Part shown: positions 15,151 through 45,617 of the stretch, piece by piece | How positions within the stretch are numbered: the stretch's first letter is position 1 | How the letters are laid out: each line of letters begins with the position of its first letter | IMG/VR virus record: IMGVR_UViG_3300028585_000031 | Span: 1-49,623 of that record | Direction: 5' to 3' (one strand) | Origin: a virus | Lineage: Duplodnaviria > Caudoviricetes | Length of the DNA stretch: 49,623 nt | Notes under the pieces: model-generated | What the model saw: the letters and a program-made list of their open reading frames with translations, nothing else | What the model was told of the DNA's origin: nothing | Database searches by the model: none | Position numbers and translations under genes: made by a program

Positions 15151-15201
15151 TAACGGGAAGCCGCGCACCGATTAGCGCGGCACAAAAAATAAACGGAGAA
15201 A

Positions 15202-15696
15202 ATGATGGGGCAATCCACCAATGCAATTATGGCTTTTGGCTTCGACCTTGGCGAAGAATTGCCGGACAGCTTTGAAGCGAACGCCGAAGATGACGGCGAA
15301 GATGACGGCGAAGATGACGGCGAAGATGACGGCGAAGATGACGGCGAAGATGACGGCGAAGATGACGGCGGTTTCGAGTCGGACGATTTTCTGCTGCGCG
15401 ATTACGACGCGGGCATACCGGAATGGCAGCCGGGCCTCTCGCCGGACTACTGGAAGGACAAACGCGATGCCTTGGCGAAGATCCCGGTCGATCTGATCCA
15501 GCATTGCTCTGGCGACTATCCGATGTATTTCCTGGCAGTCCGCGGCACCCAACGCACGGCGACTCGCGGCAATCCGACACAGGCATCTCAGTATCTGATC
15601 GGCCAGGATGAAATCGACGCCCTACGCGCTTTCTGCGACAAGCATGGCATCGAATGGCAAGAGCCGAAATGGTACATTTTCAGCATGTGGAACTAG
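15202..15696 (+). CDS. acidic hypothetical protein with (EDDG)7 repeat
   Basis: GGAG SD; 164-aa ORF. Confidence 0.85.
   Translation: MMGQSTNAIMAFGFDLGEELPDSFEANAEDDGEDDGEDDGEDDGEDDGEDDGEDDGGFESDDFLLRDYDAGIPEWQPGLSPDYWKDKRDALAKIPVDLIQHCSGDYPMYFLAVRGTQRTATRGNPTQASQYLIGQDEIDALRAFCDKHGIEWQEPKWYIFSMWN
15286..15369 (+). repeat. perfect tandem repeat (GAAGATGACGGC)x7
   Basis: Seven identical in-frame 12-nt units. Confidence 0.97.
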
Positions 15697-15726
15697 CAGG
15701 GAAGCCGCGCCACCTACGTCGCGGCC

Positions 15727-15792
15727 ACAGGTAGGCACTCGGCTGACTAACCATCAGTATTTCGGGGGATCTAAAACGAGTGCCTACCTGTG
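15727..15792. repeat. perfect 16-bp inverted repeat (stem-loop)
   Basis: CACAGGTAGGCACTCG ... CGAGTGCCTACCTGTG. Confidence 0.9.
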
Positions 15793-15799
15793 AAAGTTG

Positions 15800-15827
15800 T
15801 TGCGCTTTGCGCGCTATATGGCATAAT
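15800..15827 (+). promoter_or_regulatory. sigma70-type promoter (extended -10) upstream of the non-coding unit
   Basis: TTGCGC-16 nt-CATAAT with a TG-n extension. Confidence 0.65.
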
Positions 15828-15833
15828 TTCTGG

Positions 15834-16356
15834 AGAGGTTCCCGGTTCAGGATTGCATGCTTGCGGTCGCCGGGCTGATTAACCCCTGCATGGTGTGCGA
15901 GATTATCGGCTGACGATCTTGCGCCGCATGGCTCCCGAAAAGAGCCACCACACCGGAGCGTTTGACGGTTCGGCAGTCACGAGGGCAGCGCTGTGCACAG
16001 CGTCCTACGGGCGGCAACGACGAAACTCGAAAGAGTACGCTCCGGTGTGGTGAATGCGAGCCGCGTAACTTCGGGAAAAGCGGGCGCTGCGCAGGCTGAT
16101 GCGCTACGTGGGTAATTGCTAGGTATCGCAGTACTGCACCGTCTTGACGCTAGAGCACGTAGTGGAATCTCGATAAGCTGCGAATGCGCGGGAAAATCGT
16201 GTTAAGCGCCGTGAAATATCAAGGACAGCAATATGCCGGAGATCAGCACCGGCCACCACAATAAGTTCCTGCTCTGCGCAAGCATCAGGCTAGCAGCCTG
16301 AAAATGTACAGGCATTGAAAGCCCCGGCATCAAGCGATGCGCGGGGCTTTCTCTTT
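15834..16356 (+). ncRNA. large structured non-coding RNA unit of unknown family
   Basis: No credible ORF; bounded by a promoter and terminator; continuous hairpins, a 16-bp perfect stem and GNRA loops. Confidence 0.7.
16046..16260 (+). ncRNA. tRNA-like scaffold with complementary (kissing) loops and a large insert
   Basis: TGTGGTG/CACCACA closing stem; GCGC-AGGCTGAT-GCGC and GCCGG-AGATCAGCA-CCGGC arms; loops GCTGAT and ATCAGC are complementary. Confidence 0.7.
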
Positions 16357-16357
16357 T
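16317..16357. terminator. intrinsic terminator between convergent units (probably bidirectional)
   Basis: GAAAGCCCCG-GCATC-AAGC-GATGC-G-CGGGGCTTTC followed by TCTTTT. Confidence 0.85.
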
Positions 16358-19300
16358 ACTCGTCCTGCTCGGCGAACCGCCCGAGGTCGCGCACATCCTG
16401 GTGCTTCTTGGGCAGGTAGATGCCGCCCTCGGCCTCGTTGATGCGTTGCTGGCGCCGGCGCAGGCTCTGCATCAGCTGGGCCGGCTTGATGCGGCGCGAT
16501 TCATTCTTCTCGTTGAATTTCTCAATGTGCTCGCGGATTTCCTTTTCGCCCTCGGCGTCGCCGGCGCGGCGCGCATTGCCCCACTGCTCGATCAGCGCCT
16601 GGCGACGGTCGTTCAGGCGCCGCTCGGCCTGGTAGACCGCGCCCTTGCCCTCCATCGCCTCGCGCGAGCGCGACGGGCTGAAGCCGATCATCTGGCCGAT
16701 TTCTTCCATCGCGGTGGTGTCGTCGAGGATCGGGATGCCGCTCTTGTCCTGGACGCCGTCGCGCGCGAAGCGCAAGGCCTTGACCGGGTTGCGAAGCGAG
16801 ACCGGCAGCATGTCTTCCAGGCCACGCAGATACTGGCCTTCGGCGATCTTGCCCAGGCCTTTTGTCGCCGATACGCCGATGCCGGCCACCGGGCCCAGCG
16901 CCGCCGTCATCCAGCTTTCCGCCGCGCGCGCGCCTTCCAGCCCTTCCTGGATGTCCGGCAGGATCAGCTTATCCAGCCCGACGCGGCCCGAGATATCGAA
17001 CGGCGTGAGGCGCGAGAAGCCGCGCATCATCACCTCGGCCGGCTTCTGGCCGATCAGGTCCGCGATCAGGTTGCGCAGCGCGATCTTGGCGTCCCATGGC
17101 TCATCGTCGTCGCCACCGATCAGCGAGGCGGCAGCCAGCAGGGTGCTGACCAGCGGCAGGCCTAGCACGCCGGCCGCCATCGCATGCGACAACAGCAGGC
17201 CCGAGATCGTGCGCAGCGCCACCTTGTCGCCCTTGGCCGCCTTTACGGCATTGCGCGACAGGGTATAGATCATGTTCTGGGCGTACTGCTTGAACAGGAA
17301 CACGACACGCGCCACGTTGCCCTGCATGAAGCGAGGGCGATTCGATGCGGCATAGTCGAAGTGCGATGCATAGACCTCTTCGACCGCCGACTTGTAGCCG
17401 GCGGCGTGGTCCATGCCGGCGCCACGTGCCAGTCGGTAGGCCGCAAGCAGGGAAGCCTGCCGGTTGAACTTCTCGCCGTGGTGGAACAGGAACGATGCCC
17501 ACTTCATCACCGGGCGCAGCTTGCCTTGCGCCTTGGTATCGTTGCCGGCGGCAATGCCGGCCAGGTCGTGCGCCATCGATACGTCGATCACGCCAGCCGC
17601 CACCGCTTCCTTGTAGGCGGCCAGTTCGTCGCCGGTCAGCACCTTGCTGATGTCGTTGCCGTTGCCGGCCGCCTGCCGGCTCGCTTCGAGCAGCGCTGCC
17701 GAGGCCTTGCCGAAGCCGTACTTCGCCGACAGCATCGGCAGCGTTACCAGCGGCGTCTGCGACAGGTTGACGGCGGCCGACGCTGGCGACAGGCCGAGAT
17801 AGAACAGGAAGCCCACCGAGGTCAACGTGTTCGACAGCTCGTTGCCTTGCGGGTTCATGTAGGCGTCGTGGCGCTTGTTCATTTCGTCGACCACCTGCTG
17901 GGCGCGCACCGAATCGTAGCCGGCGTCGGTCGCCTTCGTGTCCACGTGGTCCTGCATTTCGTCGAGGAAGTCGGCCAGGCGGTCGCCGTAGCGCAGCTTC
18001 GCCAGGTAGCGCGCGCCGTGGAACATGTTCTGCGCGAATGCGCGCCGTGCATCCTGGCTGAAGCCAGGCGTGCCCTTGCGGTGGATGCCGTGCTTGGTCC
18101 ACGACAGGTCCGGCATGCTGGCCAGGTACAGCTGGTTGATGTCGTCCTGCAGCTCGGCGCTGCCCTCGTATTGGTCGAGCACCCCGAACAGTTCCTGCAT
18201 GAAGCCGCGCGAGACCGCATCGCGGCCGGCGTTGAATTCCTTCTTCTTCGTGATCTTGCTGACCACATGGCCGTCGGCAGCCGGGAATTGTTTAACGAGT
18301 TCCTTGCGCAGCGCCTCGGCCTCGTTCATGGTCTCGGCGAAGTTTACCGACTGGCGCTCGCCGGCGGCGTTGTTCACGGTCACCACGTAGTTGCCGAAGC
18401 GCGCCAGCGGGAAATAGACGCCCTTGACCTTCTCGTAGAACGTCGCGTCCATCTTCTCGAGCAGCGCGGCTCGGCGCGGCGATTCCGGCATGGCGCGCGC
18501 GATGCGGTCGCGGATTTCGGTGCGCACCTGGTTCCAGTGCTTCATGTAGGCGTCGCGCGCCTCCTTGTACAGCGATTGCCCTTCCGGATCCAGCGCATCG
18601 AAGCGGCGGCGCAGCGCCGACCACTCGGCCTTGTTGTCGCCGGCCACATGGTCCTTGCCCGGGTCGATCTGGGCCAAGGTCGAATCGTGCATAAGTTCAG
18701 CCAGCTTGTCGCCGTCCTTGAACTTGCCCCAGCGGTCGGCGATGTCGTCGGCCTCGGCGCCCGATTCGTTCTTGTCGGCGTCCATCTGCTGCACCAGGTC
18801 GCTGTAGCGCGTGAGCAGGGATTGCTTACCGGCGGGTGCGAAGTCGCTTGCGTACAGGTCGACCAGCTGACGCCGGCCCAGGAACTGCAGTCCGATGTTC
18901 CTGAAATCCTTCAGGCGGTTGCCGATCTTCTTCGGGATGTCGGCCAGCGTGGCTTCCTGGATGCCATTGCGCAGCGATCCTTCAAGCCGGTCCGGCATCG
19001 ATGCCCGGATGTCGGCGTTGTTGCGGTCGAAGTTTCCGTTATTGCCAGTAGCGCTCTTGACCTGCTCCGGGCGAAAGGCCACGGCCTCGGTGATGCTGCC
19101 ATCGGCGTCGCGGATGATGATGCCGTCGGCGCGGCTCTTCGAATAGGCCAGCTTCGCCCAGGCGATTGCGCCGCTCAATCCGCCATCCTTGATCTGGGTT
19201 TCCCAGCGGGCGCGGTCCATCAGGTCGTTGATGTCCAGCGGATTTTTGATACTCAGGTAGACCGGATAGATGACGGGATCGGAGCCGCCGCGGCGATTGC

Positions 19301-44433: not shown

Positions 44434-44631
44434 TCAAGCGGCCTTTGCTGGCTCGGAGCGGGGATGCTTACGCCGCTCCGGTCCGGTGTACTCGACCTTT
44501 GCGCCAGCGTGTTCGATTCGAAGCCGGGCAAGCTGCCCCGACTTCTGCTCGAGCGTCACGGTCGTCCCGTCGATCGTCAGCGTGCCGCCGACTTTCAAAT
44601 CCATGAACAACCGCTGTGTTTTTCCTGCCAT
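44434..44631 (-). CDS. CsrA/RsmA-fold-like small protein
   Basis: LFMDLKVGGTLTIDG-TTVTLEQKSGQLARLRI aligns by eye with CsrA [34 protein letters not shown]. Confidence 0.6.
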   Translation of the reverse strand: MAGKTQRLFMDLKVGGTLTIDGTTVTLEQKSGQLARLRIEHAGAKVEYTGPERRKHPRSEPAKAA

Positions 44632-45617
44632 CACTCTGCCTCGAATCGTGCACGTTGCGCTGCCGACATACCAGCAATTGCTTTCTCGAATTCGGCGCCG
44701 CTCATCCTGGAAAGGTGATCGAATTCGCCTTCATCGCCACTTGCAGCCGGTGCTGCAGCCGGAAGTCCGCTAAGTGTAGGCGGAATATTGTTCAGATTGG
44801 GGGTTCTGGCGGTCTTTTGGGCAACTTTTTTTTCATCGGCAACAGTTTTCGGCTGTTTTTGCGATGCTGGCGCCGGTTGCGCGGCAATTCCGTACTCGAC
44901 CATCACCTTTTTGTGGGCTTCGGCCATGAACCACTCGCCGGACTTGTCGGCGTTCTTCAGGTTGCCGGCCAGGTGCTTGACCCAGGCGTCGAGCGACTCG
45001 GCCTTCTCGGTGTCGGTGAAGTAGTTGATGCCGCTGTCCTGCGCCGCCTTGACCTGGAAGTTGTGCACTTCGGTGCCCCATTGGGCTTCGCTGGCTTTCT
45101 GGTCGCGCAGCGTGTCGCGGTCGCGCAGGTATTGGGCCTGCTTCGCGGCATAGTCTTCGGGCGACAGGTCGCCGTCCATCAGCGACTTCAGGCTGGTGGC
45201 GTTGGCGGTGTCGAGGTCCTTGAGCTTGGCATCGTACTTTTCGGCCAGGTATGACAGGTCCAGCGCCGGAACGTCGACAGCAGCCGGTGCGGCCGGTGCT
45301 GGCGTGTCGGCTTCGGCAGCAGGTGGCACTTCCGGCGCGGCAGCAGCCGCATCGGGGTCGTCCTCGTCCTGCCCCTGATCGTCGCCCGCTTCGTCATCGT
45401 CATCCTCTTCGGACTCCTCGGACTTCGCTGGGTCGGCGTCGGCGTCGCCCTTCTCTACTGGCGCGCCAGGCAGTTCGACGGCCTTGCCGGCGTCGAGGAT
45501 GGACTGGATCACGGCGTCATGGTCGGCGTCGTCACCCATCATGCCGCGCAGTTCCTCGGCCGAGTTCAGGGCATACGCATCGCGCAGTTCTTGGGTTGCT
45601 TCTTGGGACAATGCCAT
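44631..45617 (-). CDS. capsid scaffolding protein
   Basis: Very acidic N-terminus, IPPTL..LPAA motif, C-terminal F.HL..MSG.EFE.A.A.MS helix pair; between portal and capsid. Confidence 0.85.
   Translation of the reverse strand: MALSQEATQELRDAYALNSAEELRGMMGDDADHDAVIQSILDAGKAVELPGAPVEKGDADADPAKSEESEEDDDDEAGDDQGQDEDDPDAAAAAPEVPPAAEADTPAPAAPAAVDVPALDLSYLAEKYDAKLKDLDTANATSLKSLMDGDLSPEDYAAKQAQYLRDRDTLRDQKASEAQWGTEVHNFQVKAAQDSGINYFTDTEKAESLDAWVKHLAGNLKNADKSGEWFMAEAHKKVMVEYGIAAQPAPASQKQPKTVADEKKVAQKTARTPNLNNIPPTLSGLPAAAPAASGDEGEFDHLSRMSGAEFEKAIAGMSAAQRARFEAE

Follow-up and report, generated by a model that had tools for sequence, protein, structure and literature searches.

This locus raises the question of what a tightly packed phage genome carries in its longest gene-free gap, and what such an RNA could do for the phage. 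The gap lies in a 49.6-kb virus record (IMGVR_UViG_3300028585_000031; completeness estimate 79%), the whole of which, 49,623 nt, is referred to here as the window. The window contains podovirus-type head genes, a DarB-like gene of 1839 codons and an anti-repressor. In our own gene set, positions 15697–16355 (659 nt) form the longest gap among the plausible genes and the runner-up internal gap is 163 nt, which agrees with an earlier note on this DNA that had described the longest ORF-free stretch of a packed genome. The gap is flanked by plus-strand early genes on one side and by the convergent end of the 1839-aa giant gene on the other. Among 14 relatives compared for the giant gene, none shows the cassette at this position, two of these loci stopping short of the site, and in the relative L128 (80% identity) an early gene reaches right up to the end of the giant gene. 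By sequence comparison, the cassette is accessory in the phage genome.

Fold and Transcription of the Region

The region had been read as a unit running from a promoter to a terminator. Two plus-strand signals look plausible by eye: a candidate sigma-70 promoter (TTGCGC, 16 nt, TG-extended CATAAT) at 15800–15827, and an intrinsic terminator-like hairpin at 16318–16357 (stem 16318–16350, then a U tail; z = −5.6), which points toward the convergent giant gene. A consensus scan for promoters and terminators called neither. All stems named in the earlier note were found in the sequence, including the pairing of TCAGGCT (16285–16291) with AGCCTGA (16295–16301). Folding of the whole region against shuffled sequences gave z = −3.09, and the signal comes from a 16-bp stem (z = −4.4), the terminator hairpin and the 5′ hairpins (z = −2.1 and −2.6), while the conserved tRNA-like core folds at z = +0.5. 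That the region is almost fully paired is by itself no evidence.

The 5′ hairpins (15832–15946, plus strand) comprise a CCCGG domain, in which CCCGG (15841–15845) pairs with CCGGG (15870–15874), a GTGCGAGAT hairpin and a GGCTC hairpin, with further pairs at 15895–15903/15916–15924 and 15930–15934/15942–15946. They are lineage-specific; searches of phages and plasmids with the first 210 nt (15825–16040) returned chance-level matches only. A second copy of the scaffold described below was considered in 15891–15952, where its model R2 gives no match.

The 16-bp perfect stem, called the leader stalk here (15946–15961 with 16037–16052, plus strand), encloses 75 nt. Within its 3′ strand, the segment 16046–16052 doubles as the 5′ side of the scaffold's conserved acceptor stem, which makes leader stalk and acceptor stem mutually exclusive. 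A stalk of at least 15 bp was observed at this position in 23 of 81 members of the scaffold family, compared with 3 of 81 shuffled sequences, which makes a precursor or processing feature likely on comparative grounds. A hammerhead ribozyme in the leader was rejected: its 3′ half is present, but the core has two mismatches and an extra base, stem II has no closing pairs, and Rfam gives no hammerhead match there. Within the enclosed leader sequence, a 14-nt palindrome at 15989–16002 might fold as a hairpin or serve in dimerisation.

Parts of the stretch were found in thirteen leaf-litter RNA runs, six of which were examined; the other seven contain small shares of it. In five of the six, a contig of depth 2.9–16.3 extends from 15964–15971 to 16271–16314. 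Pieces further upstream have depths of 2–5, and two DNA runs continue across 15968. As contigs show neither strand, ends nor level, this cover is a weak hint of an abundant RNA of ~300 nt that would begin directly past the stalk's 5′ arm, and the contig edge near 15968 could equally reflect library loss of hairpin-forming fragments. No RNA contig lies over 16315–17738 in the six runs, which is to be read as lack of cover only. Low-depth contigs also cover 15366–15888, within and past the upstream same-strand gene, so the region cannot be called stand-alone, as had been proposed.

The Rfam scan of the region gave no family at gathering score and only terminator-like chance matches at E values up to 10, in line with the earlier statement that no known family could be assigned. 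The match to RydB is an 18-nt hairpin of 13.7 bits, compared with the 50 bits required, and ARAGORN found neither tRNA nor tmRNA.

A Cassette of Independent Modules

The region is a cassette of independent, reusable RNA modules. Three parts recur: the tRNA-shaped scaffold, a UUCG hairpin inserted in it and a 3′ module that begins with a hairpin called P1. P1 was found in 2 of 99 scaffold loci. A search of 100 other P1 loci gave no scaffold, in a count that leaves out three loci where the two had been seen together before. One viral locus, L226, has scaffold, UUCG hairpin and P1 together, with the scaffold ahead of P1 as in the window. The module order of the window, searched as a pattern, had no match in viral, metagenome or genome collections. 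Two readings had been offered for the whole region. That of a polycistronic precursor of several phage small RNAs is supported by the finding that the three parts recur independently, in varied combinations, in unrelated phages. That of one large RNA machine gains no support, as no phage record covers 80% of the region, no homolog was found for the 5′ 210 nt and the relatives of the flanking gene show no cassette at the site.

The tRNA-shaped scaffold (16046–16260, plus strand) is composed of an acceptor stem (16046–16052 with 16254–16260), a D-like hairpin (16089–16104), a variable arm (16105–16234) that is swappable between relatives and a T-like hairpin (16235–16253). The family model R2 gives a single match in the window (48.7 bits, E = 6e-10). 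BLAST with the region returned 152 phage records and, among the 40 matches listed, almost only the T-like hairpin was aligned. An exact 24-mer of the scaffold occurs in ~360 viral stretches, from which 121 homologs were fetched. Common to them are the acceptor stem, an AAU linker, the D-like hairpin, an arm of free length and the T-like hairpin. The arm has a median of 74 nt (96 parsed of 119) and a family range of 6 to ~175 nt; in the window it has 130 nt. An alignment of 43 sequences pairs in 97.6% of cells and has 59 double-sided changes, against 18.5 when shuffled. As the search pattern fixed the T stem and the parser six acceptor pairs, a fair covariation test is limited to the D stem and the outer pairs of the acceptor stem.

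In the window, the D loop GCTGA is complementary to the T loop TCAGC. This 5-nt complementarity, in the canonical form of the scaffold, holds for 92 of 110 parsed sequences. Among 17 T-loop variants fetched, matching D-loop changes were observed in L210, L212 and L202, and perhaps in L216, several others retain pairing through G–U, and L203, L206 and L217 break it. These comparisons suggest that a D–T loop–loop helix is likely to exist.

The likeness to tRNA lies in the 12–13 bp of acceptor and T-like stem, in the frequent position inside tRNA clusters and in a CCA encoded nearby in 36 of 113 cases. Unlike a tRNA, the scaffold has no anticodon arm, a T loop of 9 nt instead of the canonical one and the 5-bp loop–loop complementarity, and assignment to RF00005 was rejected, with no match by Rfam or ARAGORN. 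T4 rnaC and rnaD were compared as well: R2 gives no match in the T4 locus, and the T loop of rnaC is canonical. A T-arm pattern in 401 bacterial genomes had four matches, two of them real scaffolds. No toxin gene was found among 116 frames flanking the scaffold or the UUCG hairpin. One locus, L012, has two scaffolds ~500 nt apart with different D stems.

The UUCG hairpin (16057–16088, plus strand) is a mobile module inserted in the linker between acceptor strand and D arm. Its core, 16064–16080, equals nt 1687–1703 of E. coli 23S rRNA, a segment that we take to be helix 62, at 16 of 17 positions. The 23S-like pattern has seven occurrences in one E. coli chromosome, and the copy located is 23S rRNA. 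The hairpin was found in 30 viral stretches. In L219 and L226 it is part of the variable arm, in L227 it replaces the D arm, and a pattern search for the insertion site of the window had no match elsewhere. It also overlaps opposite-strand TnpB-like frames in L220 and L240, for which reason it may be a generic motif, and rRNA mimicry is only a lead from sequence likeness. A small motif recurs in the phage loci L224, L229, L231, L237, L243, L244 and L247, where another hairpin, its loop of the GUGAAAG type, comes after the UUCG hairpin.

The 3′ Module and Its Bacterial Counterpart

The 3′ module (16265–16313, plus strand) is a toxin-free copy of P1 (16268–16289), linker and P2 (16296–16313), and a candidate antitoxin mimic. 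It corresponds to the 5′ two-thirds of an RNA of ~100 nt, with three stems (P1–P3), single and non-repeated, encoded behind a PemK/MazF-family gene. The model R1, built solely from 60 toxin-anchored RNAs, matches the window at 16265–16356 with 34.8 bits (E = 6e-9), the next match having 14.2 bits. P1, linker and P2 are aligned in register and P3 is not aligned; 24 nt are identical to one toxin-linked RNA (L415). No profile match to a PemK-like toxin gene was obtained in the window, a record estimated at 79% completeness. An RNA-partner copy (P1–linker–P2, without P3) is thus found together with the absence of the cognate toxin.

A scan of 185,579 cellular genomes gave 80 loci with the P1 hairpin. 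Of 81 bacterial hairpin sites, 51 (63%) have a PemK/MazF-family gene on the same strand that ends 23–86 nt upstream. The linkage was also observed from the side of the toxin. Eighty loci were fetched per collection and, after duplicates and short-flank loci were dropped, P1 and/or linker and P3 were present downstream in 67 of the 68 loci from metagenomes and in 52 of the 60 from viruses. As controls, the same patterns, which had been written after the sequences were inspected, matched 3 of 119 windows upstream of the gene and 1 of 128 on the opposite strand. The RNA has a terminator in 59 of 66 cases and the full promoter pattern in 41 of 66, and the frames behind it are 33 on the same and 33 on the opposite strand. 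Its own promoter and terminator and this lack of strand bias indicate, at the level of sequence, that it is a stand-alone unit. In the alignment, whose rows were picked by the P1 pattern, 98.2% of cells are paired and 121 show double changes, against 34 when shuffled.

The gene belongs to Pfam PF02452. The predicted structure of its product (pLDDT 85.6) has a MazF fold: it aligns with MazF at Z = 14.2 (rmsd 2.3, 112 aligned), with CptN at Z = 10.0 (rmsd 2.8, 112 aligned) and with ToxN at Z = 6.5. No match of the family sequence was obtained in PADLOC or PDB. An upstream ORF is absent in 37 of 114 toxin loci. The 75 upstream ORFs scanned (77 less two duplicates) comprise 54 singletons, 14 HTH/cI-like frames and one RHH match, with no MazE family among them. 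On the sequences compared, the toxin gene is without a conserved protein antitoxin upstream, and some of the 14 HTH frames are small enough for antitoxins. Records with the gene include 17 from plasmids and 11 from Vibrio phages, and the gene is often located behind cI-like repressors. A search of 300 further genomes from the order of the seed did not find it.

A second subtype of the toxin-linked RNA was observed at ten type-b loci (L360, L370, L384, L390, L400, L417, L429, L433, L436 and L437), where linker and P3 are kept and P1 is different. No orphan copy of this P1 was found among the loci examined.

In viruses, the hairpin is toxin-free at 98 of 102 sites of one variant, for which ~540 stretches are estimated. 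The other variant is toxin-free at all 52 sites, of which 30 score at least 28 bits and the rest may be chance. The GT start, which lies outside the search pattern, is kept at 99 of 103 orphan sites. The strict linker was found in 15 of 98 orphan copies and P3 in only 3 of 98. No convincing match to the 3′ module was found in cultured phages. Three viral loci (L147, L533 and L601) have the full-length three-stem RNA with no toxin gene detected alongside. At L515, L528, L556, L558, L563, L574, L575, L593, L597 and others, an orphan P1 is followed by a shared long second stem; these copies form a distinct phage subfamily, often ahead of tRNAs. At L508, L535, L550, L579 and L610, P1 lies in a 5′ leader, a few nucleotides ahead of genes that appear to belong to a single protein family, and might be used in cis there.

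A Possible Decoy Antitoxin

We propose that the bacterial locus is a toxin–antitoxin pair with an RNA antitoxin and that the phage 3′ module is a decoy antitoxin against this predicted defence system. This reading, drawn from sequence comparison and from analogy with known systems, is given a probability of about 0.45. The PemK/MazF-fold protein would be a toxic RNase that is inhibited by binding the RNA encoded downstream. Upon host shut-off the RNA would decay and the toxin would be freed. The phage transcript would be cut near the leader stalk and behind the scaffold, which would put P1 at a 5′ end, as in the bacterial counterpart. If P1, linker and P2 suffice for toxin binding, the decoy could keep the defence system off during infection. 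The scaffold would most likely be a stable, host-processed carrier, or possibly a decoy for tRNA-recognising proteins.

Several findings count against the decoy reading. Nearly all phage copies are without P3, which toxin-linked RNAs retain even where P1 differs, and most are without the strict linker; since these toxin-linked RNAs keep P3 and linker with a different P1, the toxin may not bind P1. The TCAGGCT/AGCCTGA rod competes with the covariation-supported P1/P2 fold and is preferred in the window copy (−18.3 versus −15.2 kcal/mol, 3.1 more stable). The pairing probability of P1 exceeds 0.5 in 8 of 30 orphans, and among toxin-linked copies in 40 of 84. Of the six RNA runs examined, two have contigs that span P1 (two of the five covering the scaffold), and the toxin is rare. 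The earlier note had named an antitoxin or anti-defence decoy among its suggestions; comparative support was obtained for the 3′ module only, the fold of which had been drawn differently there.

The main rival, which fits almost as well, takes P1 as a generic 5′-end module, either a stabiliser against 5′-end-dependent decay or a common host-protein site. It would protect the fragment released behind the scaffold and have no anti-toxin role. Such a module is possible, if on balance unlikely. It would explain that 66 of 103 orphan copies lie 4–8 nt behind a −10-like hexamer (control 4) and five directly behind a tRNA end, that 31 of 98 are near a tRNA T-loop motif, that most keep P1 alone and that the ten type-b toxin-linked loci have another P1. 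The CUC/U loop of P1 presumably resembles the C-loop motif. A general element would nevertheless not be expected to be so rare in cells and, where found, to be toxin-linked in 63% of cases; moreover, about half of the orphans keep the linker (49 of 103, control 10) and the window copy keeps linker and P2 in register.

It is improbable that the 3′ module is the decayed remnant of a lost toxin–antitoxin locus, with only the scaffold at work. The loss of P3, the preferred rival fold and the thin RNA cover of the module would suit a remnant, but hundreds of unrelated phages share the toxin-free hairpin, nearly all orphan sites keep the GT start and L226 repeats the order of scaffold and P1.

Still less probable is a cis-acting antiterminator of the HK022 put or Tn916 canT type, in which P1–P2 would modify RNA polymerase just after the promoter. 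Both put and canT are protein-free RNA antiterminators, as described in the account at PMC11658703. The orphan copies are promoter-proximal and head longer transcripts, only 15 of 102 having a terminator in the next 150 nt. The antiterminator fits poorly since the toxin-linked RNA ends in its own terminator, with downstream strands evenly split; in the window a terminator and a convergent gene come after the module, and RF02913 is unmatched in 10 toxin loci at E 0.5. Least probable of all is a single ornate RNA of ~520 nt like GOLLD or ROOL, which by the account in PMC5737381 occur near tRNAs in prophages; the scaffold would then be its integral tRNA-like arm. The overall z score speaks in favour of such an RNA, as do the single promoter and single terminator seen by eye, but it has neither Rfam match nor full-length homolog, the modules assort independently, leader and acceptor stems exclude each other and the RNA contigs favour shorter species.

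Relation to Known Systems

The decoy antitoxin has its closest precedent in phage phiTE, whose pseudo-ToxI acts against ToxIN and, as far as the published account goes, is a tandem repeat that needed expansion to work (PMC3475682). Common to both is a phage non-coding RNA that looks like the partner RNA of a toxin with MazF fold and comes without the gene for that toxin. On that account, the difference is that here a single hairpin unit, of putative function, occurs in hundreds of phage contigs and in RNA/tRNA operons.

In type III systems (ToxIN, CptIN and TenpIN), the RNA is described as an upstream array of pseudoknotted repeats in one operon with the toxin (PMC5086642). The bacterial locus shares with them, as so described, the MazF/Kid-like fold, the lack of a conserved protein antitoxin and the adjacent structured small RNA. 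It differs in having one three-stem RNA, downstream and with its own promoter, and a protein that scores higher against MazF (Z 14) than against ToxN (Z 6.5). A classical type III system was thus rejected, the fold being of the right kind and the upstream repeat array being absent. Assignment to type II MazEF/PemIK was rejected for want of a conserved small antitoxin gene upstream, the 37 of 114 loci without any ORF included, with the 14 HTH/cI-like frames and the RHH match as a caveat.

In logic, the bacterial locus is nearer to AbiF, a HEPN RNase toxin that, in the available descriptions, is neutralised by the non-repetitive cis-encoded RNA AbiFr/RCd22 (PMC12737573; bioRxiv 10.1101/2025.04.15.648962); it differs in that AbiF is a HEPN protein. 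The Rfam abiF motif had no match in the loci scanned.

The Rfam pemK motif RF02913 is likewise a structured RNA beside a pemK gene. It sits upstream of the gene, mainly in Firmicutes. Identity with it was rejected, with no covariance-model match in the region or in 10 toxin loci at E 0.5.

Racrs and viral sgRNAs are reported as the lone RNA part of a host defence system expressed by phages (bioRxiv 10.64898/2026.06.01.729453). The co-option of the RNA part alone would be shared, whereas their targets, in that report, are CRISPR-Cas proteins.

The literature searched, mostly from outside subscription journals and with PMC5737381 taken without its supplement of 224 motifs, describes neither the toxin–RNA pair nor its phage copies nor the scaffold. 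The pair and its phage copies are apparently undescribed, and a prior description may exist.

In its widest form, the proposal would be an undescribed toxin–antitoxin class, with a MazF-type RNase and a single downstream three-stem RNA, of which hundreds of phages carry a mimic of 30–50 nt; the cassette would be an anti-defence island in which antitoxin mimic, tRNA-shaped scaffold and 23S-like hairpin each decoy a different host nuclease. We consider this form doubtful. If the proposal is true, an RNA-antitoxin family would bridge type II MazF toxins and type III systems, among partnerless genes annotated "type II PemK/MazF toxin", and RNA antitoxin mimicry would be a common phage strategy beyond a single laboratory case. 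Many phages carry unannotated RNA operons beside tRNAs, and a decoy antitoxin would be the first function open to test for one of their modules.

Other Observations at the Locus

In L138, ~190 nt beside the 3′ end of the giant gene form a different promoter–hairpins–terminator unit, matched by neither R1 nor R2. As it occupies the same site as the cassette, a slot for small RNA cassettes is suggested at the 3′ end of the giant gene. Ahead of the cassette, 15699–15795 (plus strand) has a short GC hairpin, with a similar copy near 15155–15185, and then a second 16-bp perfect stem (15726–15741/15777–15792) around a 35-nt loop. In L128, a related element precedes an early gene, and a role in processing or regulating the early operon is possible. 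Within the gene that precedes the cassette, a tandem 12-nt repeat at ~15285–15370 encodes an acidic stretch. A CsrA-like regulator gene (PHROG 8397) lies on the minus strand at 44434–44634, flanked by the scaffold-side gene and the gene for the major head protein.
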